Source of the DNA: Okeania sp.
GTDB lineage: Bacteria > Cyanobacteriota > Cyanobacteriia > Cyanobacteriales > Microcoleaceae
DNA: 32,000 bases
Assembly: GCF_035285525.1 (NCBI RefSeq)
Contig: NZ_JAYKGW010000186.1
Coordinates: 1-32,000, forward strand
Reading direction: 5' to 3'
Shown here: one piece after another, positions 558-19,251 of the stretch
Position numbering within the stretch: the stretch's first letter is position 1
Layout: the number at the start of each line of letters is the position of its first letter
The notes under the pieces: generated by a model
Told to the model about the DNA's origin: nothing
Databases searched by the model: none
Seen by the model: the letters and a program-made list of their open reading frames with translations, nothing else
Made by a program: the position numbers and the translations under genes

Positions 558-1198
558 AGTTATTTTATGAATTTTATTAAACCATTTATTGATCAAAGCT
601 TATATTATTCTATTCGTCAGTGATCAGTATCATTACTTATGAAAATAGGCAGCCTGGAAATACTCAATTTTCTTTGATCTTGGTCGATTAGATATGAGGG
701 GTTCCTCCCCATCCTACTCTATGAGAAGTGTTTCGCAGCATTTCGTAGGAAAGCTTTGTGGAGGGCAAAAATGACTGCTTTTTATCCTCTTTAAAAACCA
801 TTCTTGATCAACATCATTTCTGAACCAAAAACTTGACAAAATAGAAAAAATATGGTAAAAAAGAAAGCTGGAGAACTAATTTTTAGGTTATTAATTTCCA
901 CTTGCTGATTAAACTTCAAAATCTTTAACTGACTGACGATTTATAGCCATACCCTCAATTATATTTATACAAACTATAAACTTAACTTTTTTTAGCTAAA
1001 ATTGAGATTATATGCTTACTCTTTTGTTAATCAATACAAACAAAAATTGCAAATTTGTTATTGATTTATATCACATTAATACCTTTGTCCCTATCGACGA
1101 TAGGAAGCAATCTCCAGAACCGCCAAGGATTTCAATCCTTGGCTCATAGCTGAAGTCATCTTTCCGATGACTGTAATGTTATTCTTGAATTGAAAAAT

Positions 1199-3344: not shown

Positions 3345-3627
3345 AGCGATCGCTCCTTTGATTTGATAGTTTTATCTGACAGCAGTTTTCACCCTCAATC
3401 AACCACATATAAAAAATGATAACCCACTAGGGACTTTGTATGCAAGGTCTCTACTGTTTTTTTTCAATTTATTTAGGATTGCTATTTTCAACTCCATAAA
3501 TATTTGTTATAGAGCATTTGCCACTGTTGAGTTCGATTTTTTTTGCCTTTGGATAGCAGTGTCATTTCATTTATCGGTTATCAGTAGGGACGTATCGCTG
3601 CGCGACATGCAGCGCATTTTTGTTATG

Positions 3628-3902
3628 CAACTTCCCTACAGTTATCCTTTACCAGCAATAAAAATAGGGAAGTTAGCTGTAGATAAAACTATGCAGGGTA
3701 GGGGTTTGGGTAAGACGTTATTGATGAAATGCTTGAAAAAAGCTGTTCGCCTTTCTTCAGAGGTGGGGACTTTGCCATCGCGGTTGATGCTTTTAATGAG
3801 GATGCTAAGGCTTTTTATTTAAAATATGGCTTCATTCCTTTGGAAGATAATCCACTTTCGCTTTTGATCCCTATGAAAACAATTTTGGCTGTTTTGGAAT
3901 AG
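3628..3902 (+). pseudogene. GNAT-family acetyltransferase toxin (TacT-like) remnant: C-terminal ~90 codons only, with one frameshift
   Basis: Frame 1 reads LPYSYPLPAIKIGKLAVDKTMQGRGLGKTLLMKCLKKAVRLSSEVG. After a frame slip near 3770, another frame reads DFAIAVDAFNEDAKAFYLKYGFIPLEDNPLSLLIPMKTILAVLE and stops at 3900-3902. The N-terminal half of a ~165-aa GNAT is absent, and repeat DNA lies upstream. Confidence 0.75.
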
Positions 3903-4678: not shown

Positions 4679-4979
4679 AACAAAAGACTTCTTATATTCA
4701 TAACCAAAACTAATTACCGAATCATTAATTCAGATTAAAGAGGTAATGATCCATTAATATATCCTCATCCCAAATTAATTTTGTACACAAATCCCCTTAA
4801 ATTTTCTTAACAAATATTGAGAGTATATACCTGATTTTTTGTCAATAGATGTAACAAAAAATTTCCAACTTCTTATAGAATTGTATCAAATCAATACATT
4901 ACTCTACCTTTTTGGCAAATTTTCTGGTATATATACTCAATTGAGCATCAGCAACTATCCCCAAGGAGTAATACTTAAA

Positions 4980-7900
4980 ATGTTCACATCCGTTAAACCT
5001 ACCATTCGCCACATTGTCCCAGATGACTTGAAGGGGCGATCGCTCTTAAAGGTTGTATATATAGTTCTAGAAGCACAGTATCAAAGTGCCCTTTCCGGAG
5101 CAGTACGTTCTATTAACGAGAAAAATCCTAATTTGGCCATAGAAATAAGTGGCTATTTAATAGAAGAACTCCGCGACCCCCAAAACTACGAAAACTTTAA
5201 AAGAGAAGTTTCTGAAGCTAACATTTTTATCGCCTCCCTAATTTTCATTGAAGACTTGGCCGAAAAAGTAGTAGAAGCTGTAACACCCCACCGCGACAAA
5301 CTCGATGCTGCGGTAGTTTTCCCTTCCATGCCACAAGTGATGCGCCTGAATAAAATGGGTACATTCTCCATGGCGCAACTAGGTCAGAGCAAAAGTGCTA
5401 TAGCTCAGTTTATGCGGAAGCGCAAAGAAAAATCTGGTTCTTCTTTCCAAGATGGAATGTTGAAGTTACTGCAAACTCTGCCGAAAGTATTGAAATATAT
5501 GCCTATTGATAAGGCGCAGGATGCTAGGAACTTTATGCTCAGTTTCCAATATTGGTTAGGGGGTTCCTCCGAAAACTTGGAAAACTTCTTACTGATGTTG
5601 GCAGATAAATATGTTTTCAAAGATGAGAAAAAAAGTTCTTTTAAATATGTCGATCCAGTAGTTTATCCAGACATGGGTGTTTGGCATCCCCTCGCCCCCA
5701 AAATGTTTGAAGACGTCAAAGAATATCTCAACTGGTACAACCAGCGCCAAGATATTTCCGAAGATTTGAAAGACCCCCTCGCTCCTTGTGTTGGTTTAGT
5801 TTTGCAGCGCACCCACTTAGTTACCGGAGACGACGCTCACTACGTTGCCATGTTGCAAGAGTTGGAAGCATTGGGAGCTAGAGTTATTCCCGTATTCGCT
5901 GGAGGATTAGATTTTTCCAAACCAGTCGATGCTTATTTCTGGGAAACCGCTGCCAAAGGAGTTGCACCCACACCATTAGTAGATACAGTTATTTCCTTGA
6001 CTGGTTTTGCATTAGTTGGCGGACCTGCAAGACAAGACCATCCGAAAGCCATCGAATCCTTGAAACGGTTGAACCGTCCATATATGGTAGCTTTACCTCT
6101 AGTTTTCCAAACCACCGAAGAATGGGAAGAAAGCGAACTTGGTCTGCACCCCATACAAGTCGCTTTGCAAATAGCTATTCCCGAACTAGACGGAGCGATC
6201 GAACCTATTATTATGTCTGGGCGAGATGGAGCAACCGGAAAAGCGATCGCTCTCCAAGACCGGATCGAAGCAGTCGCTACACGGGCGCTGAAGTGGGCAA
6301 GTCTGAGACGCAAACCTAAACTGAATAAAAAAGTTGCCATTACTATTTTCAGTTTCCCACCAGATAAAGGAAATGTTGGTACTGCTGCATATTTAGATGT
6401 ATTCGGTTCCATCTATGAAGTTGTCAAAGGACTCAAAAACAACGGTTACGATATTCAAGACTTGCCAGACTCCGCAGCAGAGTTGATGAAGCAAGTTATT
6501 CACGATGCCACTGCTCAATATCAAAGTCCTGAGTTGAATATTGCTCACCGGATGTCAGTTGCAGAATATGAACGTCTGACTCCATACTCCGAAAGGTTGC
6601 ATGAAAACTGGGGTCCGCCTCCAGGAAACCTGAATAGCGACGGCGAAAATTTATTAATTTACGGTAAGAGTTTCGGCAACGTTTTCATCGGAGTCCAACC
6701 AACATTTGGTTATGAAGGCGATCCTATGCGGTTATTGTTCTCTCGTTCCGCTAGTCCTCATCATGGTTTTGCTGCTTACTATACTTATTTAGAACAAATT
6801 TGGCAAGCTGATGCGGTACTACATTTCGGGACTCACGGTTCTCTCGAATTTATGCCTGGTAAACAAATCGGAATGTCTGGAGACTGTTATCCAGATAATC
6901 TGATCGGTAATATTCCCAACATCTATTATTATGCAGCGAATAATCCTAGTGAGGCGACTATTGCTAAACGTCGGAGTTATGCAGAGACTATTTCTTATTT
7001 GACTCCCCCTGCCGAAAATGCTGGTTTATATAAAGGTTTGCAGGAGTTGAACGAGTTGATCGGTTCTTATCAAACTTTGAAAGATAGCGGACGGGGTGTT
7101 CCCATTGTTAACACTATTATGGATAAGTGTCGGATGGTGAACTTAGACCAGGATGTGACGCTGCCAGAAAAAGATGCTCAGGAGTTGACTGCTGAGGAAC
7201 GGGATAAAATTGTCGGTGATGTTTACCGCCGACTGATGGAAATAGAGTCTCGGTTATTGCCTTGTGGTTTGCACATTATTGGTAAACCTCCTAGTGCTGA
7301 GGAAGCGATCGCTACTTTGGTAAATATTGCTAGTCTCGACAGAGAAGAGGAAGGAATAACTGGTTTACCTAGAATTATTGCTAACAGTCTCAACCGGGAT
7401 ATTGAGGAACTTTACCAAAATAATAATCAGGGTATTTTGGCAGATGTGGAGTTAGTTCAGAGTATTACGGAAGCGACTCGTGCTGCTGTTGCTGCGTTGG
7501 TTCACCAACAAACCGATGCTGACGGCCGAGTTTCGATGGTGAGCAAACTCAATTTCTTCAACATGATGAAAAAAGCACCTTGGATAGAAGCTCTGGAAAC
7601 AGCAGGCTTTCCCGATGTTGATGCCGAACTTATTAAACCTCTGTTTGAATATTTGGAATTTTGCTTAGAGCAGGTTTGTGCTGATAACGAGTTAGGTTCC
7701 CTGTTGCGAGCGTTGGAAGGAGAATATATTTTACCGGGACCTGGTGGCGACCCCATTCGCAACCCAGATGTGTTACCGACTGGTAAGAATATGCACGCTC
7801 TCGACCCCCAGTCTATTCCCACTGCTGCTGCGGTTAAGTCGGCAAAAATTGTAGTTGACCGTTTATTGGCGCGACAAATGCAAGAAAATGGTGGGCAGTA

Positions 7901-8969
7901 TCCAGAAACTATCGCTGTTGTGTTGTGGGGAACTGACAATATCAAGACTTATGGTGAATCTCTTGCTCAAGTAATGTGGATGGTAGGTGTGAAACCTGTA
8001 CCTGATGCTTTAGGTAGGGTGAATAAGTTAGAATTAATTCCATTATCAGAATTAGGTCGTCCCCGTGTTGACGTAGTGATTAACTGTTCCGGTGTATTCC
8101 GAGATTTATTTATCAATCAAATGAACCTTTTGGATAAAGCTGTGAAAATGGCAGCAGAAGCAGAGGAACCGGAAGAGATGAACTTTGTTCGGAAGCACGC
8201 TCTCAAGCAAGCCGAAGAGTTAGGAGTAAATTTACGTCAAGCTGCAACGCGGGTATTTTCTAATGCTTCCGGTTCCTATGCTGCGAACGTTAATTTGGCA
8301 GTTGAGAATAGTACCTGGGAAGATGAGTCAGAATTACAGGAAATGTATTTGAAGCGCAAGTCGTTTGCATTTAATTCTGATAACCCAGGAATGATGGAAG
8401 ATAACCGGAAAGTGTTTGAGTCAGCATTGAAAACTGCCGATGCCACATTCCAGAATTTAGATTCGTCGGAAATTAGTTTAACCGATGTGAGTCATTATTT
8501 TGATTCCGATCCGACAAAAATTGTGGCGAGTCTGAGGAAAGATGGTAAAAAACCATCTTCTTATATTGCGGATACGACGACTGCCAATGCTCAGGTGCGT
8601 TCATTATCTGAGACGGTACGTTTAGATGCGCGGACAAAAATGTTGAATCCGAAATGGTATGAGGGAATGTTGTCTCATGGTTATGAAGGAGTGCGGGAGT
8701 TGTCAAAGCGTCTCGTGAATACTATGGGATGGAGTGCGACTGCTGGTGCTGTGGATAACTGGGTTTATGAAGATGTGAATGAGACATTTATAAAGGATGA
8801 GCAGATGCAGCAGCGGTTGTTGAATTTGAATCCGCATTCGTTCCGGAAGATGGTGACGACATTGTTGGAAGTGAACGGACGTGGTTATTGGGAGACAAGT
8901 GAGAGTAATTTGGATCGGTTAAGAGAGTTGTATCAGCAAGTGGAGGATAGGATAGAGGGGATAGAGTAA
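4980..8969 (+). CDS. chlH: Magnesium chelatase subunit H (CobN/ChlH family)
   Basis: Long ORF 4839-8969. I place the start at ATG 4980 ([35 protein letters not shown]), giving 1329 aa, the usual ChlH size. CobN/ChlH signatures are present throughout, e.g. [15 protein letters not shown] and [21 protein letters not shown]. Confidence 0.96.
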
Positions 8970-9006
8970 TTAATGGATAATGGATAATTGATAATGGATA
9001 ATGAGA
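8969..9006. repeat. Heptamer (STRR-like) tandem repeat, TGGATAA units
   Basis: taattaatggataatggataattgataatggataatgag lies immediately after the chlH stop. Confidence 0.7.
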
Positions 9007-9034
9007 AGTATCTCTAATTATTAATTATCTATGG

Positions 9035-9062
9035 TAGGGTGGGTGAATATTTGCCCGCCCTA
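9035..9062 (+). terminator. Stem-loop downstream of chlH (candidate terminator)
   Basis: tagggtgggtgaat/atttgcccgcccta forms an inverted repeat (with G-U pairs) followed by tttcat. A similar hairpin, gtaggggcaaacggcggttcgcccctac, lies at about 22845-22872. Confidence 0.45.
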
Positions 9063-9105
9063 TTTCATATTACTGCAGTTTGTAAAATATCTTTTTTATC
9101 TCAAA

Positions 9106-10848
9106 ATGGAACTACACGCATACACTAAAACAATTTCCGAGCTATTTTCTGTAAAGAAGCAGTATATTGTCCCTAGATTTCAAAGACCATACTCATGGGA
9201 TAAAGATAAGGTATCTGAGTTATGGGATGATATAGTTTCAAATATTTCCATCAATGATGATAATACCTTTAGTTATGAAGAGTATTTTATTGGTTCACTT
9301 GTTCTTGTAGGTGATGATAAGTCTGTAAAGATGCAAATTGTTGATGGACAACAACGCTTAACAACATTGACTATTCTACTTTCTACCCTTTGTCAAAGGT
9401 TTCTAGAGATTGATAAAAAAAATATAGCTGAATCTATCTATGAAAACTATATTGCCGGAAAAGATGACGACGGTAATTATTATTTTAAATTAGAAAATGA
9501 GACCCCAAAACCTTTTTTTCAAACAGTTATTCAAGATATTAATAAAGTTAGTAAAAAACAATGTCTCCCATCTTCTGAGGAAGAACAAACTTTGTTAAAT
9601 TCATATGATGAATTTTATTCTTACACCTCTAAAACATCTCTCAAGCAGAAATTTAAAAAATATCGTCTAGATGAAAGTTTATATGAAAATCTTTTGAAGG
9701 CAATTAGAGATCAAGTCGTTACGTATTTGAAAGTGATTTTTATAACTGTTAAAGAAGAAGATGATGCTTATACAATCTTTGAAACTTTAAATGCTAGAGG
9801 AATGGACTTAACTTTTGTTGATTTAATAAAAAATAAAGTCTTCAAAAGCTCAACAACAACTCACCCCGATGATTTTACCAAAACTAAGTGGACAAACTTG
9901 AGAAATATAATAGATTCACGAGATGATGTAGGCAGTCTAGAAATTTTTGTAAGACACTGGTGGATATCTAAATATGATTATACGAGTAAAGATAATATTT
10001 ACAAACATTTTAAAAAGCGATGGAATAGTGGGGAAATAGGTGAAAATTTTTTAGATGAGTTAGTAAATGATGCTAAATTGTACATGAAAATATCATCTCC
10101 TGTTACAGAAGACTTTAAGCAGCAGGAAGAAAAAGACCTATATAAATCTTTAGTGGCATTAAAAATTTTTAATGTTAGTCAACAAAAACCTTTCATACTA
10201 AGCCTATTCAAAACTTTAGAAAATAAGAAAATAACATTAGCTCAAGTAAAAGACATTCTTACTTTTATTGAAAAATTTCACTTCTCTTTGAATGCAATCT
10301 GTTCTTTGGGTTCTTTAGGTATTGAAAGAAGTTATTCTACAGCGGCAAGAGAACTACTTAAAGCAAATAACAAACGACAATCAAACCAAGTATTAAAGGA
10401 ATTAAAACAACGGTTTGAACCACGAATTCCTGCGAGAAGCACTTTCGTAGAGAACTTCTCTCGATTAAAGTATACCAGTAAAGAGCCTAAACATAAAAAA
10501 CTAATTCAATATATTTTTAGCTATATTGAATCACGCAAACAAACAACTAATGAGTTTAAGCCTAATAGCATGACATTAGAGCATATATTACCCCAATCTT
10601 ATAAGAAAGATAAAGAATTTGTAGCTTCTATTGGTAATTTATTACCTTTGGGACAAAAATTAAATGAAGAAGCTGCGGATAAAGATGTTCATAAAAAAAT
10701 AGAGATATATAAGAAATCAAATTTTGCACTAACACAAGAATTTGCTCAAACTCCTCCTCAAAAATGGGGAAAGGAAGAAATTAGAAAAAGAACAAATGAT
10801 CTGGCTGAATATTGTTACAATTCTATGTGGAATAATAGCAACCCATGA
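9106..10848 (+). CDS. GmrSD-like nuclease: N-terminal DUF262 (ParB-like NTPase, DGQQR motif) plus C-terminal DUF1524 (His-Me finger)
   Basis: The ORF is 9031-10848; the likely start is ATG 9106 (MELHAYTKTISELF). FQRPYSWDKDKVSELWDDI and IVDGQQRLTTLTILL are DUF262 hallmarks. TLEHILPQS..IGNLLPLGQKLNEEAADK is the DUF1524 H...N...N nuclease motif. Confidence 0.85.
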   Translation: MELHAYTKTISELFSVKKQYIVPRFQRPYSWDKDKVSELWDDIVSNISINDDNTFSYEEYFIGSLVLVGDDKSVKMQIVDGQQRLTTLTILLSTLCQRFLEIDKKNIAESIYENYIAGKDDDGNYYFKLENETPKPFFQTVIQDINKVSKKQCLPSSEEEQTLLNSYDEFYSYTSKTSLKQKFKKYRLDESLYENLLKAIRDQVVTYLKVIFITVKEEDDAYTIFETLNARGMDLTFVDLIKNKVFKSSTTTHPDDFTKTKWTNLRNIIDSRDDVGSLEIFVRHWWISKYDYTSKDNIYKHFKKRWNSGEIGENFLDELVNDAKLYMKISSPVTEDFKQQEEKDLYKSLVALKIFNVSQQKPFILSLFKTLENKKITLAQVKDILTFIEKFHFSLNAICSLGSLGIERSYSTAARELLKANNKRQSNQVLKELKQRFEPRIPARSTFVENFSRLKYTSKEPKHKKLIQYIFSYIESRKQTTNEFKPNSMTLEHILPQSYKKDKEFVASIGNLLPLGQKLNEEAADKDVHKKIEIYKKSNFALTQEFAQTPPQKWGKEEIRKRTNDLAEYCYNSMWNNSNP

Positions 10849-11051
10849 TTTACGAAATAATCCTTTACTGGAGTCAAGAAGACCGAGCATTTATAGAAGA
10901 AGTTCCAGAATTACCAGGTTGTATTGCTGATGGAGAAACCTATCAACAAGCACTGCAAAATGTAGAAATAATTATGCAAGAATGGATAGAAACTGCTCAA
11001 GAATTAGGACGAGAAATTCCTACACCAAAAAATCGGTTAATCTTAACATAG
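10845..11051 (+). CDS. hicB: HicB-family antitoxin-like protein (N-terminal HicB fold only, no DNA-binding domain)
   Basis: 68 aa: MIYEIILYWSQEDRAFIEEVPELPGCIADGETYQQALQNVEIIMQEWIETAQELGREIPTP. The vPeLPGC..G.T..eA core is typical of HicB/UPF0150. The ATG overlaps the stop of the upstream nuclease gene (ATGA at 10845-10848). Confidence 0.85.
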   Translation: MIYEIILYWSQEDRAFIEEVPELPGCIADGETYQQALQNVEIIMQEWIETAQELGREIPTPKNRLILT

Positions 11052-11066
11052 ATAAAATAGGCGATT
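10955..11066 (+). repeat. hicB 3'-end unit, copy 1 (functional copy inside hicB)
   Basis: 10955-11041 is identical (87/87 by eye) to 15297-15383. The tail catagataaaataggcgat resembles the tails of copies 3-5. Confidence 0.9.
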
Positions 11067-11186
11067 CTCTAGTTAATTATATATTCAATCAGACATAATA
11101 AAAATTTACATAGCAATTAGATTAAATTTGTAGTAAAGTATTAAGTGAAGTTGTTTTTGAAAAAATTTGAGAAAAGGAAAATCTAG

Positions 11187-11999
11187 ATGACAAATAAAAC
11201 CTGCTTTGATATTTTTGAGCAGTGCGTATTAGCTGTCCAGGGAGGTGAACTCATTGAATCTGTCAGCCGTAAAGACAAAGAGTTTCATTTTCAAAACTGG
11301 TTTAAAAAACGTTTACAAAATATTCCAGTTCATTTTGAAGAATCAGGGAGAAATAAATACCCAGATTTCTGTTTAGTCGAGTCAACTGAAGGTTATGAGG
11401 TTAAAGGTTTGGCTTGGCCTGGCCGCGAACGTGACTACGACTGCAATAGCCAAGTTCCAACAGGTTATCATAACGGCAGGCAAATATTTTATGTTTTTGG
11501 TCGTTATCCTGCCGATCTGTCAGTTTATCCAGACAAAGTGAACGGAAACCGACAGTATCCAGTAATCGATCTAGTAATCTGTCACGGTGATTTTCTGAAT
11601 GCAGAACATAACTACGTTCACAAGAATAAAAGTGTCAAAGGTTTTGGCAGTTATGGAGATATTATGATTCGCGATCGCAAAATGTATGTTGCTCCAACAC
11701 CTTTTGCACTAACCGAAGGAACAACCGGTTTAATGACTCTCATTGTTCCCGAAGGTATGGATGCTGACTCTAGGTTTCAAGAAGTTGGTCGATTAAGTCG
11801 TTTTGAAGCAGACAGTCTAGTAGTCGGTTACTCCTTTGACTTGGAGACTAACGAACTTAAAGCCCAGATGCGTCCTAATCCCAATGCAGGAAACGAACAT
11901 AAATTTATAGCATATAGGCTCACTAACCAAGGCTCAAGGTTTGTCACAATGGCAGGTGTTACTCCAGCTATTGATGAAAGTATGGAAAGTAATGAGTAA
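11187..11999 (+). CDS. Putative PD-(D/E)xK restriction endonuclease
   Basis: 270-aa ORF with E32...KYPD60FCLVESTEGYE71VK73GL, a classic E...PD...ExK arrangement. It lies directly upstream of a DNA methyltransferase on the same strand. Confidence 0.6.
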   Translation: MTNKTCFDIFEQCVLAVQGGELIESVSRKDKEFHFQNWFKKRLQNIPVHFEESGRNKYPDFCLVESTEGYEVKGLAWPGRERDYDCNSQVPTGYHNGRQIFYVFGRYPADLSVYPDKVNGNRQYPVIDLVICHGDFLNAEHNYVHKNKSVKGFGSYGDIMIRDRKMYVAPTPFALTEGTTGLMTLIVPEGMDADSRFQEVGRLSRFEADSLVVGYSFDLETNELKAQMRPNPNAGNEHKFIAYRLTNQGSRFVTMAGVTPAIDESMESNE

Positions 12000-12002
12000 T
12001 AG

Positions 12003-12085
12003 ACATCTCCAAAAATCAAAAATCAAATCAATTATTTCGTCCTGTTCCCTGTTCCCTATTCCCTGTTCCCTATTTTCTGGAGATG
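12003..12085. mobile_element. 83-bp MITE-like element with terminal inverted repeats and an internal heptamer array
   Basis: Left end catctccaaaaat, right end attttctggagatg. The interior is cctgttc cctgttc cctattc cctgttc cctattt. A related inverted copy is at 19641-19747 and a partial copy at 20317-20345. Confidence 0.75.
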
Positions 12086-12089
12086 AGTA

Positions 12090-14219
12090 ATGAATCCAAG
12101 AATTAAACAACATCCATTGATTCCACCCGATGCAACTACTGCAATTGAATGTGATTTCCCGATTCTTGAAATTAGCCAATTAGCAGAGCGAGAGAGTTGG
12201 CGTAAGGAAATTAATCGCCCAATATATCACATTCACAAATGGTGGGCGACACGCTTGGGAACAGTATTTCGTGCCATTACTTTAGCAGCTTTGAGTCGCC
12301 CTGGTACTAATATTTGGAACAATTTCTATGAAAGTCACCAATTCACGAACAAAGTCGTACTCGATCCATTTATGGGTAGTGGTACAACCCTAGGGGAAGC
12401 AGTTAAACTAGGAGCTAAGGCAATAGGTTGCGATATCAACCCCATCAGCACTTTTCTGGTTCGTCAAGCATTTACTAGAGTTCCAGAAACAGAACTTCGG
12501 GCTGCATTTACTCGTCTTGAACAGAAAGTTGCTCCCGATATTCGTCATTATTATCAGACTAGAGACCCACATACTGGCGAATTGATACCAGTGCTTTACT
12601 TTTTCTGGGTTAAGACTGTCGTCACACCCACGTTGGAAACGATTCCACTTTTTTCTAGGTATGTATTTTCACAGAATGCTTACCCTAAGAAAAAGCCGAA
12701 AGCTCAGATTATTTGTCCCAACTGTTGGAGTGTAATTGAAAATAGGTATGACACCACCAACCTGATATGTCCTCATTGTCAGCATTCCTTCAATCCTCAA
12801 AAAGGACCTGCATCGGGTCAATACATAACTGCACAAGATGGTACTCGCTACCGTATTAAAGACCTTTTACCATCTAATGGCAACCCACCAGTAAATCGGC
12901 TATATGCTATTATGGCGTTACGTCGAAATGGTGAGAAAGTTTACCTTCCAGTGAGAGAGGAAGATTTATCATTGTATACTGAGGCTGAAGCCAGACTAAA
13001 ATCTGAGACTTTGCCACTACCAACTTTGAAAATTAGAGATGGATATAATACCAACCAAGCTCGTAGTTATAATTACACCTACTGGCGCGACTTTTTTAAT
13101 TCTAGACAGTTATTATGTCTTGGACTCCTGTTGCGCAGTATCCTTGAAATAGAAGATCAAGCCATTCAGGAGCAAATGTTATGTCTCTTTTCTAGCACTT
13201 TGGAATTCAATAGTTTGTTTTGTAGTTTCAAAGGTGAGGGTACTGGTGCTGTGCGACATACCTTTTCAAATCATATATTAAAGCCAGAGCGTACTCCCTT
13301 AGAAAACTCAGTATGGGGAACGGATAAGAGCAGTGGTACTTTCAGTAGCCTGTTTGAGTCGCGCTTGATGCGAGCAAAACGCTATCTGGATTATCCTTTT
13401 GAAATTAAACGTAACTTCACTGTTAAGCAGAAAGCATCCCAAAAACCTGTAGCAAGTCAAAGTATTAACGTTCAGAAAGTAAAAACATGGGAGCAATTTG
13501 ATAATAGGGAAAATAGCCTGATGGTAATCAATGGTGATAGTTCCTACTTACCCTTACCTGCAAAATCAGTTGATGCAGTTGTTACCGATCCCCCTTATTT
13601 CGATTTCATCCATTACAGCGAGTTAAGTGATTTCTTTTTTGCCTGGCTGTCTCCTGTTCTCAAAGATCGCTATCCAGAGTTTGCCAAACCTAATTCATCA
13701 AACCAGGGAGAAGTTCAAGATAAAAGTCCCCTCATATTTGCCAGACAACTTGCTTCAGTTTTTTCTCAGTGTAGCCGTGTACTTAAGGATGATGGAGTAT
13801 TGGTATTCAGTTTTCATCACTCCAAAGTTGAAGGATGGGCTGCGATTTGCGAAGCTATTACAATTGCTGGAATGCTTGTTGTTGCAACACATCCAGTTTA
13901 TAGTGAGTTCCGCACAGGAACCTCAAAGACAGCAGCTAAAAGCCGGATTTGCCTAGATGCAATCTTAGTTTGTAAGAAATATTCCTCATTTAATATACGT
14001 CTAGACCAGCAGACTTTAATAAGTAAGACTGAAACTTTAGCTAAACAACTCGAAGAGGGCGGAATATCTATTTCTGAAGCAGATCGTTTTGTAATTCTTG
14101 CCTCACAGATGTTAATCCCTTTATCTCAACAAAAAAGAGACTTTAATTTTGTGTGCAATACTTTACAACAAATACATCAAGTTGCTCAAAAATCTTGGAA
14201 TTCTAAAGTGGCTTCCTAA
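12090..14219 (+). CDS. DNA methyltransferase (N6-adenine/N4-cytosine class) with DUF1156-like N-terminus and internal zinc ribbon
   Basis: 709 aa. AdoMet motif I is VVLDPFMGSGTTLGEAVKLGAKAIGCDINP (from about nt 12357). Catalytic motif IV is VVTDPPYFDF (about nt 13579), roughly 380 aa downstream. CPNC...CPHC lies at 12714-12779. The N-terminal ERESWRKEINRPIYHIHKWWATR resembles the DUF1156 signature. Confidence 0.8.
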   Translation: MNPRIKQHPLIPPDATTAIECDFPILEISQLAERESWRKEINRPIYHIHKWWATRLGTVFRAITLAALSRPGTNIWNNFYESHQFTNKVVLDPFMGSGTTLGEAVKLGAKAIGCDINPISTFLVRQAFTRVPETELRAAFTRLEQKVAPDIRHYYQTRDPHTGELIPVLYFFWVKTVVTPTLETIPLFSRYVFSQNAYPKKKPKAQIICPNCWSVIENRYDTTNLICPHCQHSFNPQKGPASGQYITAQDGTRYRIKDLLPSNGNPPVNRLYAIMALRRNGEKVYLPVREEDLSLYTEAEARLKSETLPLPTLKIRDGYNTNQARSYNYTYWRDFFNSRQLLCLGLLLRSILEIEDQAIQEQMLCLFSSTLEFNSLFCSFKGEGTGAVRHTFSNHILKPERTPLENSVWGTDKSSGTFSSLFESRLMRAKRYLDYPFEIKRNFTVKQKASQKPVASQSINVQKVKTWEQFDNRENSLMVINGDSSYLPLPAKSVDAVVTDPPYFDFIHYSELSDFFFAWLSPVLKDRYPEFAKPNSSNQGEVQDKSPLIFARQLASVFSQCSRVLKDDGVLVFSFHHSKVEGWAAICEAITIAGMLVVATHPVYSEFRTGTSKTAAKSRICLDAILVCKKYSSFNIRLDQQTLISKTETLAKQLEEGGISISEADRFVILASQMLIPLSQQKRDFNFVCNTLQQIHQVAQKSWNSKVAS

Positions 14220-14281
14220 TGTAGAAATAATTATGCAAGAATGGATAGAAACTGCTCAATAATTAGGACGAGAAATTCCTA
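14218..14281 (+). repeat. hicB 3'-end unit, copy 2 (5' part only)
   Basis: 64 bp, aatgtagaaataattatgcaagaatggatagaaactgctcaaTaattaggacgagaaattccta, with 1 mismatch to copy 1. It exactly fills the gap between the methyltransferase stop (14217-14219) and the parD stop (14285-14287). Confidence 0.9.
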
Positions 14282-14284
14282 TCA

Positions 14285-14566
14285 TTATTTAATTATTCCT
14301 TGTTTCATTTCAGTTTCAATGTGGTTAATATCTGCCTCTAATTCTGCAAATACTTCTTCTCCATCAATTCCTTCACCACGATCTAGTTCTTCTATTCCCA
14401 TTCTTATTTTTTCTTTTAACTCAACAAAATGTTTAGCACGAATACTCTCTTTTTCTGATAAAAGTCGCAATGCTTCTCCTACTACTTCTGTAGCGGATGA
14501 ATACCTACCACTATTAACTTGTTCCTCAATAAATTTTCGCGCTTCTAGACTTAAAGATATGTTCAT
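14285..14566 (-). CDS. parD: ParD-family (COG3609, ribbon-helix-helix) type II antitoxin with no cognate parE
   Basis: 93 aa: MNISLSLEARKFIEEQVNSGRYSSATEVVGEALRLLSEKE..., the canonical ParD4-type N-terminus. Confidence 0.85.
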   Translation of the reverse strand: MNISLSLEARKFIEEQVNSGRYSSATEVVGEALRLLSEKESIRAKHFVELKEKIRMGIEELDRGEGIDGEEVFAELEADINHIETEMKQGIIK

Positions 14567-14655
14567 AAAAACGACCTAAATAATTGTCAAATTATTAAAA
14601 TTATAACCCTAGTAGGAAAATATAGCAAGTTGCATAATTTCCAGAATTATCCGCA

Positions 14656-14757
14656 CAAAAATACGGTCAATATTGATATAGATAAAGCAGGCGATCGCTC
14701 TTTTTATGAAGAGAGCGATCGCCACCATAACCAAACCAAAAATACCTGCTACTTTTA
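14656..14757 (+). repeat. hicB 3'-end unit, copy 3 (3' part plus HIP1 hairpin)
   Basis: caaaaatacggtcaatattgatatagataaagcaggcgatcgc aligns with ccaaaaaatcggttaatattggctagatagaagaggcgatcgc of copy 4. The trailing ..ataaccaaaccaaaaatacctgctactttt matches copy 5. Confidence 0.75.
14690..14723 (-). terminator. Near-perfect HIP1-based hairpin downstream of the DUF4160/DUF2442 operon
   Basis: ggcgatcgctct-ttttatga-agagagcgatcgcc has a 12-bp stem and lies 32 nt past the 14755 stop on the minus strand. Confidence 0.5.
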
Positions 14758-15030
14758 CACCAAAGAATGTACTTGACTACCAGGAGCAGGTGCGCCTCGT
14801 AATAATCCTTCCGTACTAATATCTTCGTCTATTTCTTCCCAATGAATACCATAACCACCACCACATATTTCCCATGCTTGTAGTTGTTCGGGAGTTGCTT
14901 TTAATAGACGAGGATACCAAACTAAAGGAACAGTAATAGTACGTCCATCCATCAGTTCAACACTGAAAGTATCCTCTTGTATTTGTACATTTTTAACTCG
15001 CTCATCAGCTTGAGGTGTTGAAGTACTCAT
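14755..15030 (-). CDS. DUF2442 domain protein
   Basis: 91 aa with FSVELMDGRTITVPLVWYPRLLKATPEQLQAWEICGGGYGIHWEEIDEDIS, the DUF2442 pattern. It overlaps the upstream DUF4160 gene by 26 nt. Confidence 0.8.
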   Translation of the reverse strand: MSTSTPQADERVKNVQIQEDTFSVELMDGRTITVPLVWYPRLLKATPEQLQAWEICGGGYGIHWEEIDEDISTEGLLRGAPAPGSQVHSLV

Positions 15031-15247
15031 TCCATTTCTCCAAAAAATTTTGTTGATTTAATTCGACAATTGATTGAATTTTTCTTAACTCTTTAGGACT
15101 GAACCCAATATTCTTAGCTAGAGATACAGAAGATAACCAGAATTTGGCAGAAAGATTATCTCTATCAACATGAATATGTGGTGGTTCATTTGGTTCGTGA
15201 CTATAGAAGTAAAAGCGATATGCTTCAAATCTAAGAACAGTTGGCAT
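15005..15247 (-). CDS. DUF4160 domain protein
   Basis: 80 aa: MPTVLRFEAYRFYFYSHEPNEPPHIHVDRDNLSAKFWL, the DUF4160 signature (F.F.F.S.E...PHiHv). It forms the commonly conserved pair with DUF2442. Confidence 0.8.
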   Translation of the reverse strand: MPTVLRFEAYRFYFYSHEPNEPPHIHVDRDNLSAKFWLSSVSLAKNIGFSPKELRKIQSIVELNQQNFLEKWNEYFNTSS

Positions 15248-15296
15248 TTTTTACTACTAAAATTTACTTTATTAATAGCATATATTGTCAAGCTTG

Positions 15297-15437
15297 GCAA
15301 AATGTAGAAATAATTATGCAAGAATGGATAGAAACTGCTCAAGAATTAGGACGAGAAATTCCTACACCAAAAAATCGGTTAATATTGGCTAGATAGAAGA
15401 GGCGATCGCCTTCCTCATAAAGAGAGCGATCACTACC
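15297..15437 (+). repeat. hicB 3'-end unit, copy 4 (full length: last ~29 hicB codons, alternative stop, degenerate HIP1 hairpin and T-run)
   Basis: 15297-15383 is identical to 10955-11041. It continues attggctagatag (would encode ..NRLILAR-stop), then ggcgatcgccttcctcataaagagagcgatcactacc followed by tttttttatt. Confidence 0.9.
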
Positions 15438-15515
15438 TTTTTTTATTACAACTTTTTGTGCTATCCTAAAGTAGATATTGCCTACTAAAAATAATCAAAT
15501 CAAGGAGTGAAAATC

Positions 15516-15845
15516 ATGGAAAACCCAATAGAAAAAATGGCAAAAGCAGCTACTAGAATAGATATTCGTGCTGCTGTGTCTGCGGCCAAGAATTACTTAA
15601 TTTCAGTGAAAGATTTATTAGGAGGAACACAAGATATTAGACTAGAAGAAGTTGAATTATCTGAAAACGAACAATTTTGGTTAATTACACTTGGATATAA
15701 CCGCAGAAAAGACCTTGCTTTACCTGATGAAGTTGATTATAGCGACTTATCTCCCGAATTTATTGGCATAGAACGAGATTATAAAATTTTTACAGTTAAT
15801 GCTCAGACAGGTGTAGTTGAATCTATGAAAATCCGCGAATTATGA
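15516..15845 (+). CDS. Hypothetical 109-aa protein, upstream partner of the PIN-like gene
   Basis: The ORF track starts at GTG 15507. I prefer ATG 15516, which is 8 nt after AGGAG (15503-15507). The stop overlaps the next gene's start (ATGA at 15842-15845). I see no RHH, HTH or AbrB motif. The C-terminus YKIFTVNAQTGVVESMKIREL is PepSY-like in flavour only. Confidence 0.6.
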   Translation: MENPIEKMAKAATRIDIRAAVSAAKNYLISVKDLLGGTQDIRLEEVELSENEQFWLITLGYNRRKDLALPDEVDYSDLSPEFIGIERDYKIFTVNAQTGVVESMKIREL

Positions 15846-16333
15846 TAATTGAAACTCAACTGTTAAAAAAATATCAAAGCAAAGGTATTTTAGTTGATAC
15901 AAATATTTTGCTTTTATGGTTTGTTGGTAGAGTTAATCAAAAGCGCATTTCTCGATTTAATCGCACTAAAAAATTTCTACCAGAACATTATCAATTATTA
16001 GATAGACTATTAAAGTTTGCCAAAGTTGTTACCACCCCTAATATTCTGACAGAAGTTAATAGTTTAATTAATCAAATGGGCGAACCAGACCGCTCAAAAT
16101 GCCTCAGTATTTTAGCTAAAGAAGTTACTAAACTAGATGAATTTTATCTTGAAAGTAGCACTGTCAGTCAAGAGGAAAAATTTACTAAATTTGGTTTAAC
16201 TGACAGTGGAATTATCAGTCTAGTACAAGGAAAATATTTAGTATTAACTGACGATTTTCCACTAGCAAATTATTTACAAAGCATTGGAGTTGATACAGTT
16301 AATTTTAACTATTTGATTGATTATCAATGGTAG
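15842..16333 (+). CDS. PIN-like domain nuclease (putative toxin or defence effector)
   Basis: 163 aa with acidic residues in PIN order: GILVDTNILL (D), TPNILTEVNSL (E), GLTDSGIISL (D), LVLTDDFPL (D). Confidence 0.65.
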   Translation: MIIETQLLKKYQSKGILVDTNILLLWFVGRVNQKRISRFNRTKKFLPEHYQLLDRLLKFAKVVTTPNILTEVNSLINQMGEPDRSKCLSILAKEVTKLDEFYLESSTVSQEEKFTKFGLTDSGIISLVQGKYLVLTDDFPLANYLQSIGVDTVNFNYLIDYQW

Positions 16334-16367
16334 TTGAAAAAAACTAAAATCTTCAGTCCAAAGGCTT

Positions 16368-16489
16368 AAAATACAGTCAATATTGACATAGATAAAACAA
16401 GCGATAGAACTCCGTTCCGCTTCGCGATCGCCTTCCTAAGAAAAAGAGCGATCGCTACTATAATTAAACTAAAAATACCTGCTATTTCA
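16368..16489 (+). repeat. hicB 3'-end unit, copy 5 (3' part plus hairpin, with ~20-bp insertion)
   Basis: aaaatacagtcaatattgacatagataaaacaagcgat...cgcgatcgccttcctaagaaaaagagcgatcgctactataattaaactaaaaatacctgctatttc is colinear with copy 3. It abuts the valS 3' end. Confidence 0.75.
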
Positions 16490-16515
16490 TATCAATAATT
16501 TTCAGATATATCTGC

Positions 16516-19251
16516 CTAATTTGACTTTAACTGATTCAGGCGATCGCGTAATATTTCTGCCTGTTTTTCTGCCTCTGCTAAATTATTTCTAGTTTCTTCT
16601 ACAAATTTAGGATCTGCCTTCTCAACAAAAGCAGGTTTACTTAACCTTTTAGAAGTAGATAAAATTTCTTTTTCTAACTTTCCTAATTTCTTTTCTAACC
16701 GAGCTGATAAAGCTTCAATATCTACTACTCCAGATAAAGAAATTAAAACTTGTACGGTTCCAATCACACCTGCAATAGTTTGACCAATTTTTTCATCAAT
16801 CTTAGCAGTAATATCTAACTTTTCAATCTTGACTAAATTCTGAATATAAACCTCTCCTTTTTGCAAAATTTTTCGTTCTTTTTCATTCTCACTTTGCAAA
16901 ATTGCTGTGATTTTCACCTTGGGTTTAATATCAACTTCTGCCCGTAAATTTCTCAATGTCCGAATTACCCCAATTAATAATTCAAACTCCTCTTCTAGAT
17001 CGGAATTAATTAAAGATTTCTCTAACTTCGGATAAGACTCCAAAGCCAAACATTTTTCTTCTCCAACCTGATTTAAAGTATGCCAAATTTCCTCAGTAAT
17101 ATGAGGCATAAAAGGATGTAATAATCTCAAAAATCCATCCAAAACATAAGCCAAAGTTTGCTGTGCCACTAACTTAGAATTTTCATCCTCACCCTGCAAA
17201 CGAGACTTCACTAATTCCAAATACCAATCACAAAAATCTCCCCAAATAAATTCATAAATACCTTTAGCAGCTTCCCCCAAACCATAATTATCTAAATAAT
17301 TACAAGTTTGCTGTACAGTCTGATAGAAACGAGACCAAATCCAACAATCAACTAACTCTAATTTATCCGCCTCTGGTTCTCCTAATTCTTGAGGAGTTTT
17401 CCCCTCTAATTTCATCATTACAAATCGAGCAGCATTCCAAATTTTATTAGTAAAATTTCGAGACGCTTCTACCGATGCTGACTCATCAGTTTCTCGATTA
17501 TAATCCATCCTTACATCTTGTCCTGCTCCGGCAGTTTCTCGCATCAAAGTATAACGCAAAGCATCAGTTCCATACTTTTCAATTAATAATAATGGGTCTA
17601 TTCCATTACCAACAGATTTAGATTGTTTTTTGCCGTTTTCATCTAACATTAAACCGTGAATATATACAGTTTCAAATGGCATTTCCCCAGTTAAATGTAC
17701 TCCCATCATTGTCATTCTAGCAACCCAGAAAAAGATGATATCAAAACCAGTTGAAAGAGTGCTAGTCGGATAATATTTAGCTAAGTCGGGAGTGTTTTCC
17801 GGCCAACCTAATGTGGAAAACGGCCATAAACCTGATGAAAACCATGTATCAAGCACATCTGGGTCTTGTTGAATTTTTACATCATCTCCAAATTTTGCCT
17901 TTGCTTGCTCTAATGCTTCCGCTTCCGAACGAGCGACAATAAAAGGAGTGCCATCAGTAATTTCGCCATTAGTTTCGCTGATAGCATACCAAGCCGGAAT
18001 TTGATGACCCCACCACAGTTGCCTAGAAATGCACCAGTCTTTAATTTTTACTAACCAGTCGCGATAAACTTTCGTCCAACGTTCCGGAACAAATTTCGGT
18101 TGATTGTGTTCATCTAATAATTCCAGTGTTTTCGTTGCCAATGGTTCAATTTTGACAAACCACTGAGTTGAAAGTAGAGGTTCTACAGGTACTTTCCCGC
18201 GATCGCTATAAGGAACGCTATGACTATATTCTTCTATTTTAACCAAAAACCCTTCTTCTCTTAATCGTTTGATAACATTTTTCCGTGCCTCAAAACGGTC
18301 TTGTCCGGCAAACACTCCGGCATTTTCATTCAAACTGCCATCCTTATTCATAATATTAATAAATGGCAAATTATGACGTTTACCCATTTCAAAATCATTG
18401 GGGTCATGGGCTGGAGTAACTTTAACACAACCAGTACCAAACTCAAGGTCTACCAACTCATCAGCAACAATAGGTATTTCCCGTCCCATTATTGGTAGAG
18501 TCAGAGTTTTGCCAATCAGATTTTTGTAGCGATCGTCATTGGGGTTCACTGCAACACCAGTATCTCCCAACATTGTTTCTGGACGAGTTGTAGCAACTTC
18601 CACATAACCACTACCATCAGTGAGGGGGTAGCGGAAATGCCAGAGGTTGCCATGAACTTCCTTATTTTCCACTTCCAAGTCAGAAACCGCAGACTGACTA
18701 GCAGGACACCAGTTCACCAAATAGTTACCGCGATAAATGAGACCTTGTTCATAGAGACGCATGAATGCTTCAATCACAGCTTTAGATAAACCTTCATCCA
18801 GAGTAAAACGTTCCCGCGTCCAGTCTGTAGAAACTCCGAGACGACGCAGTTGATTAACAATAGTACCACCAGACTCCGCTTTCCATTCCCAAGCACGTTC
18901 CAGGAATTTTTCCCGTCCGATATCGTAGCGAGTTTTGCCTTCAGCTTTCAGTTTACGTTCCAGAATAGTTTGAACTGCGATACTAGCGTGGTCAGTACCA
19001 GGGAGATAGAGGGTATTTTCACCCCGCATTCGATGGTAACGGATCAAAGTGTCAATCAGAGAATTATTAAAAGCATGACCTGCATGGAGACTACCTGTAA
19101 CGTTTGGTGGAGGAATAACGATACAGTAAGGGTCTCCCGGTTGGTCAGGGTTGGCTTGGAATGTATTATTTTCTTCCCAATATTTTTGCCATTTAGCTTC
19201 AGTGGCAAACGGGTCATATTTGCTTGGTAGTTCAGGTATGGTTTTGGTCAT
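16516..19251 (-). CDS. valS: Valine--tRNA ligase
   Basis: 911 aa: [15 protein letters not shown] (HIGH-class motif), KQSKSVGN (KMSKS variant), a class Ia editing-domain layout and a C-terminal coiled coil (..[18 protein letters not shown]). Confidence 0.96.

Follow-up and report, generated by a model that had tools for sequence, protein, structure and literature searches.

The window analysed here is a 32,000-nt stretch of an Okeania sp. contig (NZ_JAYKGW010000186.1). On its forward strand, two genes are joined by a four-nucleotide overlap, in which the TGA stop codon of a 109-aa protein, hereafter the partner, and the ATG start codon of a 163-aa PIN-domain protein share the sequence ATGA (junction sequence gaattATGAtaatt; Table 1). 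The original prediction for this locus had described two such ORFs and this overlap, and both are present in the ORF listing and in the sequence; the stop/start overlap implies that translation of the two genes is coupled. The longest ORF for the partner extends from 15507 to 15845 on the forward strand and begins with GTG (112 aa), whereas initiation at the ATG at 15516 yields 109 aa. The latter start is supported by the appropriately placed AAGGAG Shine–Dalgarno sequence, and the N-terminal MEN... extension of the partner is also kept in close relatives, as judged by alignment.

Table 1 Positions of the two genes and of the surrounding features in the window.
Feature	Position	Strand	Description
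Partner gene	15516..15845	+	109 aa; candidate PIN-neutralizing (antitoxin-like) protein
PIN-domain gene	15842..16333	+	163 aa; putative Mg2+-dependent endoribonuclease effector (toxin)
ATGA stop/start overlap	15842..15845	+	Read from sequence
AAGGAG ribosome-binding site (Shine–Dalgarno)	15503..15508	+	7 nt before the 15516 ATG; read from sequence
Left cassette boundary, "hicB unit 4"	15289..15437	+	Repeat families D1 and D11; five-unit alignment
Right cassette boundary, "hicB unit 5"	16368..16487	+	Repeat families D5 and D7; alignment
Intact HicB-like gene	10845-11051		68 aa; Pfam PF15919, E 9e-9
valS	16516-19251		Convergent; after "hicB unit 5"
DUF1156-type methylase	12090-14219		1.3 kb upstream of the pair

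No ORF of 40 aa or longer is present on the opposite strand within either gene. A promoter scan found no promoter-like match in the leader (15438-15515), and matches elsewhere did not exceed the expectation from shuffled sequence; the accompanying terminator scan found no canonical terminator, and an Rfam scan of positions 9000-17000 returned no RNA family.

The pair occupies its own cassette between two repeat units, as had been proposed. The left boundary, "hicB unit 4", contains the hicB 3′ half in truncated form, followed in our description by an imperfect hairpin that carries the HIP1 octamer (GCGATCGC). The right boundary, "hicB unit 5", consists of a copy of the end of hicB and a HIP1 hairpin (stem–loop 16424-16455; folding z-score -4.3), and may act as a terminator or as a recombination boundary. 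The neighboring genes in the window encode toxin–antitoxin or defense proteins (GmrSD, HicB-like, the DUF1156-type methylase, ParD and DUF4160/DUF2442), other cassettes lie between the methylase and the pair, and the order of the repeat-bounded cassettes differs in related genomes. In this genome the module is one discrete cassette within a shuffled toxin–antitoxin/defense island. The intact HicB-like protein comprises the HicB-like N-terminal domain only. We considered hicB as the source of the DNA-binding regulator that the pair lacks, and rejected it, because HicB-like genes or fragments occur near the pair in only six loci of the Trichodesmium/Okeania group.

The acidic motifs expected of a PIN nuclease are all present in the 163-aa protein and in the predicted order: ILVDTN (D19), ILTEVN (E71), GLTDSG (D121) and VLTDDF (D137/D138). 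Across 45 PIN homologs, the tetrad D19, E71, D121 and D138 is invariant, and D137 is conserved in at least 90%. The AlphaFold (AF2) model (pLDDT 85.3, pTM 0.82) adopts a PIN fold, an alpha/beta/alpha sandwich of three layers around a central parallel sheet. When this model was compared with the PDB using Foldseek, the top 15 matches were all PIN domains or PIN-containing proteins (probability about 1.0, target-normalized TM 0.51-0.71), and nearly all of the best 50 listed matches were PIN proteins as well, rank 16 being an archaeal helicase. Structural matches include 3ix7, VapC (5x3t and 5wz4), SMG6 (2hww) and PAE0151 (2fe1); VapC20, the VapC of 5x3t, Shigella VapC and FitB are among the best. 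The protein is indeed longer than classical VapC, the aligned VapC chains measuring 130-145 aa.

At the level of sequence, the family is divergent. The window protein has no match in Pfam at the gathering threshold (the sole match is DUF188, E 0.24) and no significant one in NCBIfam or PHROGs, and the PIN family profile finds only chance-level matches among PDB sequences. Sub-threshold matches to the Pfam PIN model PF01850 were obtained for 21 of the 45 homologs (best E 0.0041). A homolog search recovered relatives that fall into 1003 or more clusters at 90% identity and are named "PIN domain-containing protein" or "FCF1" in the databases. From its fold and its conserved metal-binding acidic residues, we predict that the 163-aa protein is a divergent VapC-like PIN endoribonuclease.

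In its model (pLDDT 85.6), the partner has one or two helices at the N terminus and an antiparallel sheet of four strands, with a variable beta2–beta3 loop at about residues 65-84. A homolog search gave 66 matches, and the family amounts to 3246 representative clusters at 50% identity; alignment of the homologs identifies E44, E45, V46, W55, T58, R87 and V101 as invariant, and the conserved face of the protein is taken to comprise E44/E45/E47, R87/K90 and K105/R107. The original prediction held that the partner is not a known VapB-type antitoxin, and the profile and structure searches agree with it: there is no significant match to Pfam, NCBIfam, PADLOC, PHROGs or PDB sequences, and neither the model nor its Foldseek matches contain an RHH, AbrB, HTH or Phd DNA-binding fold. 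In contrast to the usual type II antitoxin, which is partly disordered and labile to proteases, the partner is predicted from its model to be a compact folded domain.

The suggested likeness to PepSY domains is a weak one. The sequence patterns on which it was based are present (EEVELSENEQFWLITLGY and DYKIFTVNAQTGVVESMKIREL), and the partner model, in which a helix lies against an antiparallel sheet of four strands, is compatible with PepSY in its topology. Sub-threshold matches to PF03413 were found for 13 of 62 family members (best E 0.0045), and the window protein itself has none. Foldseek against the PDB and viral structures returned no match with E <0.01, and we therefore assign the partner to no fold family. 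The best match is ARC6 (E 0.016), which is not a PepSY protein; the PepSY-containing structures 3nqz and 5boi match weakly (E 0.13), and NTF2-, SnoaL- and ARC6-like folds score equally well or better. As a further candidate we considered DUF3780, a small alpha+beta protein that belongs to Type-2 BR systems. It was rejected: a passage of PMC12839542 describes it as five helices and a four-stranded sheet, and in the cyanobacterial loci a separate 142-aa DUF7680 protein fills its position.

The two genes are strictly paired. Of 79 genome loci found with the PIN protein, 77 have the partner gene immediately upstream; of the two exceptions, one is at a contig edge and one is a PIN pseudogene. Starting from the partner instead, a search seeded with the less diverse of two partner alignments found a PIN gene directly downstream in 46 of the 67 metagenome loci with room for one, including contigs of 60-70% GC. 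Co-occurrence of the pair, which had been put forward as a check, is therefore evident from both sides. The pair is also the sole conserved unit of the neighborhood, the next commonest family being found in 18 of 79 loci. It is mobile: five cyanobacterial plasmids carry it, each with both genes. Internal disruptions affect PIN genes in 10 loci (two of them through MITE-like insertions) and partner genes in three. The partner diverges faster than the PIN protein, with a median pairwise identity of 0.50 versus 0.61, and is the less conserved of the two in 90% of comparisons.

In reach, the family goes beyond what the original prediction described: it is widespread, not rare; it frequently forms part of Hma/BREX-related methylase systems; and it includes a clade that consists of the partner only. 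Most members are cyanobacterial, with one Acidobacteriota MAG and high-GC contigs in addition. The partner-only clade comprises 87-aa homologs on contigs of about 60-65% GC that are conserved without an adjacent PIN gene. Where flanks are visible, these genes lie upstream of an alanine racemase gene, mostly with a nucleoside hydrolase gene on the other side. The partner family can thus persist on its own. In two further loci (L126 and L148), a restriction–modification pair, not a PIN gene, follows the partner. Searches of IMG/VR viral contigs and of GenBank phages yielded no relatives of the PIN protein, and a phage origin was rejected on that ground. Our literature search found no paper that joins PIN, PepSY and antitoxin, and none that cites the plasmid-borne accessions of the pair.

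None of the three grounds on which the original prediction might have failed (no PIN or other nuclease fold, no joint conservation, a known VapB-type partner) was found to apply, and its interpretation is supported. The near-constant association of the two proteins suggests a toxin–antitoxin-type module, and the locus looks like a two-gene, translationally coupled module of this type with a new kind of partner. Several properties fit a type II system: the partner is encoded first, the genes overlap by 4 nt (ATGA) in 116 of 129 homologous loci, the partner is acidic (pI 4.7) and the PIN protein is basic (pI 8.6). On balance, we favor the reading that a VapC-like PIN toxin is neutralized through direct binding of a folded partner devoid of a DNA-binding domain. 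The partner would bind the PIN protein stoichiometrically and mask its active-site groove. For a protein that lacks a DNA-binding domain, autoregulation of the operon in the manner of VapB is improbable; expression of the pair would then be set by a flanking promoter or by the host operon. Loss, degradation or titration of the partner, possibly triggered by loss of the cassette or plasmid or by infection, would free the nuclease, and the freed nuclease would be expected to arrest translation. The co-occurrence of the genes, the complementary charges of the proteins and the more frequent decay of the PIN gene favor this reading indirectly. Counting against it are the compact fold of the partner and its lack of a DNA-binding domain, the partner-only clade, the two loci in which a restriction–modification pair takes the place of the PIN gene, the synteny of the pair within clades such as Nostoc, and the absence of a meaningful PADLOC match for either protein.

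An alternative of some, though clearly lesser, probability is that the pair is a back-up (abortive-infection) effector of DNA-modification defense, in which the partner is a sensor or adaptor and not a simple labile antitoxin. Once a phage had disabled or bypassed the neighboring Hma/BREX-related system, the partner would release or activate the PIN RNase. This alternative overlaps with direct neutralization; the main differences would lie in what triggers the module and in its biological role. The genomic context of related loci speaks for it. In 16 of the about 102 loci with room, a DUF1156 N6-methylase gene (PADLOC HmaB, E 2e-75) begins within a few nucleotides of the PIN stop codon, and DUF499 ATPase (HmaC) and DUF7680 genes lie upstream of the pair, so that the operon reads DUF499, DUF7680, pair, DUF1156 methylase, helicase; the same arrangement occurs on two plasmids, and the operon of Allocoleopsis pMIC7113.06 is an example of it. 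More broadly, the Hma/BREX-related trio (DUF499 AAA+ ATPase, DUF1156 N6-methylase and helicase), or parts of it, flanks the pair in about 16-27 related loci. Passages of PMC12839542 list PIN endoRNases among the rarer back-up effectors of BREX/BR systems and describe no small partner protein for them. In the window, the methylase and a GmrSD enzyme belong to the same island as the pair, and the variable beta2–beta3 loop of the partner could serve as a recognition surface. About 80% of loci, however, have no BR/Hma gene within 3 kb. The Hma core trio is also incomplete in the window, where the DUF1156-type methylase is separated from the pair by other cassettes and both the DUF499 ATPase and the helicase are absent. 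Moreover, neither protein has a meaningful match to a PADLOC model, no homolog in phage or viral collections hints at an arms race, and toxin–antitoxin modules often settle in defense islands without functional coupling.

A broader and more speculative proposal, which taken as a whole we regard as rather unlikely, is the following. The partner family (85-110 aa) might represent an unrecognized class of PIN-nuclease regulator, a compact PepSY/cystatin-like protein, devoid of a DNA-binding domain, that holds the RNase inactive while its hypervariable beta2–beta3 loop senses a phage or defense-failure cue. On this view, Hma/BREX-related methylase systems would have recruited the pair repeatedly as a portable abortive-infection back-up, and the PIN-less clade would be a free-standing decoy or anti-toxin derivative.

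It is improbable, in our estimation, that the PIN protein is a nontoxic RNA-processing enzyme and the partner its obligate subunit, chaperone or substrate-specificity adaptor, not its inhibitor. Such a role would accord with the name "rRNA-processing protein FCF1" attached to many homologs, but this label is JGI automatic naming only, and the Pfam Fcf1 model is matched neither by the window protein nor by the 45 homologs. The partner looks, in its model, like a stable folded domain, and the partner-only clade sits in a conserved housekeeping neighborhood. Within Nostoc and like clades, the pair is syntenic and apparently vertically inherited, so that a domesticated function fits as well as a selfish one. 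Against an RNA-processing role stand the patchy distribution (228 confirmed matches, with the patterns used, among 185,579 species genomes), the presence of multiple copies in some genomes (L009 and L060 in Nostoc KVJ20; L005 and L038 in MO_207.B10), the occurrence on plasmids, the repeated pseudogenization and MITE-like insertions of PIN genes, and a variable, defense-rich neighborhood. Highly improbable is a contact-dependent or polymorphic toxin–immunity pair, with a secreted nuclease and its cognate immunity protein: an acidic inhibitor that folds compactly and carries no DNA-binding domain is closer to nuclease immunity proteins than to classical antitoxins, but the 163-aa PIN protein consists of the bare domain, with nothing at its N terminus that could serve for delivery or secretion and no repeat region there, the putative immunity gene lies upstream instead of downstream, and secretion-system genes are not conserved nearby.

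PIN/VapC modules are the most abundant class of toxin–antitoxin system, and textbooks define them as having an antitoxin that binds DNA and is in part disordered. The family described here is very large, and in it the PIN nuclease is paired with a folded protein that lacks a DNA-binding domain and lies outside any curated family. Should the partner prove to inhibit the PIN protein directly, it would constitute a new structural solution to the control of PIN toxins, and annotation pipelines could recognize thousands of proteins now called hypothetical. The repeated position of the pair just ahead of the DUF1156 methylase gene in Hma/BREX-related operons makes a back-up RNase on modification-based defense a testable proposition. 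The hosts include ecologically important filamentous cyanobacteria (Trichodesmium, Nostoc and Microcoleus), in which phage defense has been little studied.

Among the closest known systems are the VapBC type II modules (for example those of Shigella/F-plasmid and M. tuberculosis, and FitAB). In both, the toxin or putative toxin combines a PIN fold with a D/E/D/D acidic site, both are found on plasmids and genomic islands, and both place a small acidic gene before a basic PIN gene with a 4-nt ATGA overlap, an order and overlap described for VapBC in PMC5499597. Unlike VapB, the partner lacks both a DNA-binding domain (RHH, AbrB, Phd or HTH) and an extended C-terminal tail that wraps the toxin. 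Relative to VapC, the PIN protein has about 30 additional residues, its model shows further helices between strand 1 and the catalytic Glu, and it falls below the Pfam PIN threshold. A precedent for a PIN protein with a nonclassical upstream partner is provided by the PIN-COG2442 (DUF433) pairs, such as Synechocystis VapBC10 and M. tuberculosis VapBC45, which are abundant in cyanobacteria (PMC5499597, PIN_10 entry; also a passage of PMC3834315). The partner described here differs from theirs in having no DUF433/COG2442 match and in its predicted fold, an alpha helix on a four-stranded sheet.

With the PIN effectors of BREX and BREX-related systems, the pair shares a place inside the DUF499-to-helicase operon in the loci and plasmids described above, whereas most family members, the window pair included, do not adjoin a BR/Hma gene. 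The partner has its helix and four-stranded antiparallel sheet in common with PepSY (PF03413) and with cystatin- and NTF2-like alpha+beta inhibitor folds, and its weak Foldseek matches with PepSY are to the vibriolysin propeptide (3nqz) and YpeB (5boi). PepSY propeptides inhibit their cognate enzymes, which offers a functional analogy for the partner; unlike them, the partner is cytoplasmic and stands alone, being neither a secreted propeptide nor a membrane-associated repeat. Finally, Matelska et al. (2017, PMC5499597) describe PIN.7 and PIN_24, two small clusters that are mostly or only cyanobacterial and are listed as "function unknown"; PIN.7 has four acidic residues, is related to PF01850 and was noted for its non-TA-like genomic context. 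Our comparison with these clusters is one of descriptions only, set beside the weak PF01850 matches obtained here, and by that measure the present PIN family, with its 1003 or more clusters, is far larger than either.

The upstream gene of the pair, encoding a 109-aa protein (the partner), and the downstream gene, encoding a 163-aa PIN-like protein (the PIN), share the sequence ATGA at 15842–15845, so that the partner stop overlaps the PIN start. An ORF listing returned no rival ORF of ≥40 aa on the opposite strand across the two genes, and an Rfam scan of the pair region matched no family. The partner is acidic (pI 4.7), whereas the PIN is basic (pI 8.6). What the original prediction had reported from sequence is confirmed in full: the ATGA overlap, the motifs VDTN, LTEV, LTDSG and LTDD in the PIN, the pattern EEVEL...WLITLGY...YKIF.V.A.TG.V.SMKI in the partner, and the location of the two genes in a cassette of their own with hicB-derived repeats on both sides.

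Coordinates of the pair, its island and homologous loci (L numbers denote homologous loci; other positions refer to the window).
Feature	Location	Strand	Details
chlH	4839–8969
GmrSD-type (type IV) restriction enzyme and HicB-like gene	9031–11051		Pfam GmrSD_N/GmrSD_C; PADLOC HEC-06
Intact HicB-like gene, 68 aa	10845–11051		PF15919, E 9e-9
270-aa protein, then 709-aa DUF1156/PglX-like N6-methylase	11187–14219
Orphan ParD-like antitoxin gene	14285–14566		no room for ParE toxin
Hairpin	14690–14723		dG −27.7, z −7.5
DUF4160/DUF2442 gene pair	14755–15247
Ribosome-binding site AAGGAG	7 nt 5′ of ATG at 15516	+	sequence
Partner ORF	15507/15516–15845	+	112 aa from GTG, 109 aa from ATG
PIN ORF	15842–16333	+	163 aa
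Repeat copies flanking the pair	15289–15437; 16368–16487		from 3′ end of HicB-like gene
Other hicB-derived repeat copies	10947–11065; 14206–14281; 14658–14754
valS	16516–19251
Second partner gene	L003 6165–6434		~73% nucleotide identity
Short MITE-like insertions in PIN gene	L004 ~3420–3662; L020 ~667–855		terminal inverted repeats
127-aa protein gene 5′ of partner	L006 2133–2516
Hma/BR-type locus of pNsp_c	L162 2460–9483
Partner then restriction-modification pair, no PIN	L126 2483–4969; L148 2291–4777
87-aa partner homologues, no PIN	L117, L120, L122, L127, L128, L133, L137, L140–L144, L146, L151, L154, L155

The PIN falls below the threshold of every curated PIN model; it has no significant Pfam, NCBIfam or PADLOC match, and a profile of 45 homologues (58–91% identity) matched no PDB sequence. 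A word-indexed search recovered at least 1003 homologues, named “PIN domain-containing protein” or “rRNA-processing protein FCF1” in databases and, where an organism is named, cyanobacterial with one exception. In the alignment of the 45, D19, N21, E71, D121 and D138 are invariant and D137 nearly so, and sub-threshold matches to Pfam PIN (PF01850) occur in 21. The AlphaFold2 model, a confident one (pLDDT 85.3, pTM 0.82), alternates between strands and helices. Foldseek against the PDB placed PIN domains or PIN-containing proteins at all of the top 15 positions (probabilities ~1.0, target-normalized TM-score 0.51–0.71) and at nearly all of the best 50 matches listed, among them the TTHA0540 PIN (3ix7), Mycobacterium tuberculosis VapC (5x3t, 5wz4), SMG6 (2hww), PAE0151 (2fe1), Shigella VapC and FitB. 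Together, the homologues, the structural matches of the model and the invariant residues, which include the four acidic positions originally proposed (D19, E71, D121 and D138), indicate that the 163-aa protein is a divergent PIN domain with a predicted intact catalytic tetrad. It exceeds classical VapC by ~30 residues, as had been noted, because helices are added between strand 1 and the helix bearing the catalytic Glu. One homologue of 230 aa is 98% identical to it across its full length and may be a related longer form.

The partner matched no Pfam, NCBIfam, PADLOC or PHROG model, and its profile matched no PDB sequence. Every naming source calls its homologues “hypothetical protein,” save for one JGI GNAT-acetyltransferase label, and our literature search turned up no account of the family, whether from experiment or from computation. 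The family is neither rare nor exotic but large and unannotated: exhaustive HMMER searching with a 64-sequence profile found 3246 representative clusters (50% identity) at E ≤0.001 and 1493 at E ≤1e-10, nearly all members being single-domain proteins of 85 to 115 aa. Conserved positions are E44, E45, V46, W55, T58, R87 and V101; R42, L43, E47, Y89, K90, M104, K105, I106 and R107 are near-invariant. In the AlphaFold2 model (pLDDT 85.6), one or two helices at the N terminus lead into four antiparallel strands; the β2–β3 loop is variable and of lower confidence. Profile scans and the model revealed no RHH, AbrB, Phd or HTH domain, in agreement with the claim that VapB-type DNA-binding motifs are missing. 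The suggested resemblance to PepSY is plausible but unproven: 13 of 62 diverse family members match Pfam PepSY below threshold (best E 0.0045), but Foldseek against the PDB and BFVD returned nothing at E <0.01, its weak matches being generic α+β “helix on sheet” folds, including the ARC6 intermembrane-space domain, SnoaL/NTF2-like cyclases, VirB8, the vibriolysin propeptide and YpeB.

The two genes travel together. With each GTDB species represented by a single genome, a scan confirmed 228 PIN loci, of which 79 were fetched; a partner-family ORF lies directly upstream on the same strand in 77. In one of the other two the PIN sits at the edge of a contig, and in the other it is a pseudogene. 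Starting instead from the partner, we retrieved 80 metagenome loci; in 46 of the 67 with room downstream, contigs of 60 to 70% GC included, the PIN follows directly. An Acidobacteriota MAG supplies one partner homologue. The 4-nt overlap recurs at 116 of 129 junctions. All five PLSDB plasmids with one gene carry both, and no relatives were found in the viral contigs and phage genomes searched. In 110 intact pairs, sequence divergence is faster in the partner than in the PIN (median pairwise identity 0.50 versus 0.61), and the two sets of distances are correlated (r = 0.81), mostly as a result of shared history. Internal disruptions affect the PIN in ten loci, two of them MITE-like insertions, and the partner in three; the L004 insertion has the terminal repeats GAGACTGTTTGTAAA ... 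TTTACAAACAGTCTC.

These genes probably, though far from certainly, form a type II-like toxin–antitoxin module in which a PIN endoribonuclease is silenced by a bound, folded partner. The small, acidic partner would bind the PIN directly and keep it inactive, acting without the DNA-binding domain of VapB-type antitoxins; we further infer that the PIN is toxic, that it has an RNA target and that a trigger releases it. The analysis itself documents the predicted fold, the catalytic residues, how the operon is built, the co-occurrence of the two genes, their mobility and their genomic context. As far as computation reaches, the original interpretation is supported. Regarding the partner as nothing more than an antitoxin calls for caution, since its family can persist without a PIN. 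In a clade of 87-aa homologues on contigs of ~60 to 65% GC, no PIN adjoins; visible flanks show alanine racemase downstream and mostly a nucleoside hydrolase at the opposite flank, and these homologues may be an orphan or domesticated form. At two other loci, adjoining sufB, the partner precedes a 291-aa protein (weak DpnII-like match) and an N6/N4 DNA methylase.

Within the window, chlH and valS delimit the island that holds the pair. Its stretch 10845–16487 is an array of cassettes, each bordered by copies of the hicB 3′ half or of the hicB end plus a hairpin with the HIP1 octamer GCGATCGC, such as the hairpin at 14690–14723. The ParD-like and DUF4160/DUF2442 cassettes, whose genes are on the − strand, lie directly upstream of the pair. 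Trichodesmium, Okeania and Dapis contigs (L002, L003, L004, L039, L081) carry the same cassettes, reordered, behind the same chlH; accordingly, the pair acts as a separate cassette that can be exchanged. The arrangement looks like repeat-mediated or site-specific shuffling, and no recombinase was seen in the examined part of the island. The end of the GmrSD gene overlaps the HicB-like gene by ATGA, with no hicA nearby; it is unusual for a HicB-like protein to be coupled with a restriction enzyme in this way. The 270-aa protein matches nothing in Pfam, PADLOC or PHROGs; with the methylase it may be a remnant or minimal BREX-related variant without DUF499 ATPase and helicase. In L003, the first pair is followed 3.2 kb downstream, still within the island, by a second, diverged partner gene, which suggests that the array holds two paralogous pairs; this diverged type is the sole copy in L037 and L039.

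In other cyanobacteria, a DUF1156 methylase matching PADLOC HmaB (E 2e-75) begins within a few nucleotides of the PIN stop in 16 of ~102 loci with room, preceded upstream by a DUF499 ATPase (HmaC), a 142-aa DUF7680 protein and sometimes a 127-aa protein. On the annotated plasmids pMIC7113.06 (Allocoleopsis) and pNsp_c (Nostoc ATCC 53789), the genes run in the full order HTH, DUF499, DUF7680, partner, PIN, DUF1156, with a helicase-related gene following in pNsp_c. This context is the Hma system, renamed “BREX-related” (BR) in PMC12839542, passages of which count PIN endoRNases as back-up effectors of a less common kind and mention no partner protein for them. Placement in Hma/BR operons suggests the main rival reading, which overlaps our own: the pair would serve as a back-up effector of abortive infection, for which the partner acts as sensor. 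We regard this as possible but rather unlikely. Neighbor-ORF clustering of the 79 genome loci found nothing conserved besides the pair, the next family occurring in 18. A housekeeping RNase with an accessory subunit fits the data poorly and is improbable, and a secreted toxin–immunity pair, also a poor fit, is scarcely credible. In pNsp_c, more genes of defence type are inserted between DUF7680 and the pair, which still directly precedes the methylase: one set encodes a ThiF-family adenylyltransferase and a multiubiquitin-domain protein, the other an HTH protein and an ImmA/IrrE peptidase. The 127-aa protein, without Pfam or PHROG match, lies directly 5′ of the partner in L006 and 12 other loci and may be a third component in the Microcoleus-type lineage.

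As a toxin–antitoxin module, the pair would work like VapBC, differing in one defining feature: the VapBC antitoxin binds DNA, whereas the partner has no domain for doing so. The PIN family may correspond to PIN.7 or PIN_24, small cyanobacterial clusters of “function unknown” in the 2017 PIN catalogue (PMC5499597). Although their partner is unrelated to the one described here, the PIN–COG2442/DUF433 pairs, common in cyanobacteria according to PMC3834315 and PMC5499597, are the closest precedents for a PIN with a non-classical partner.
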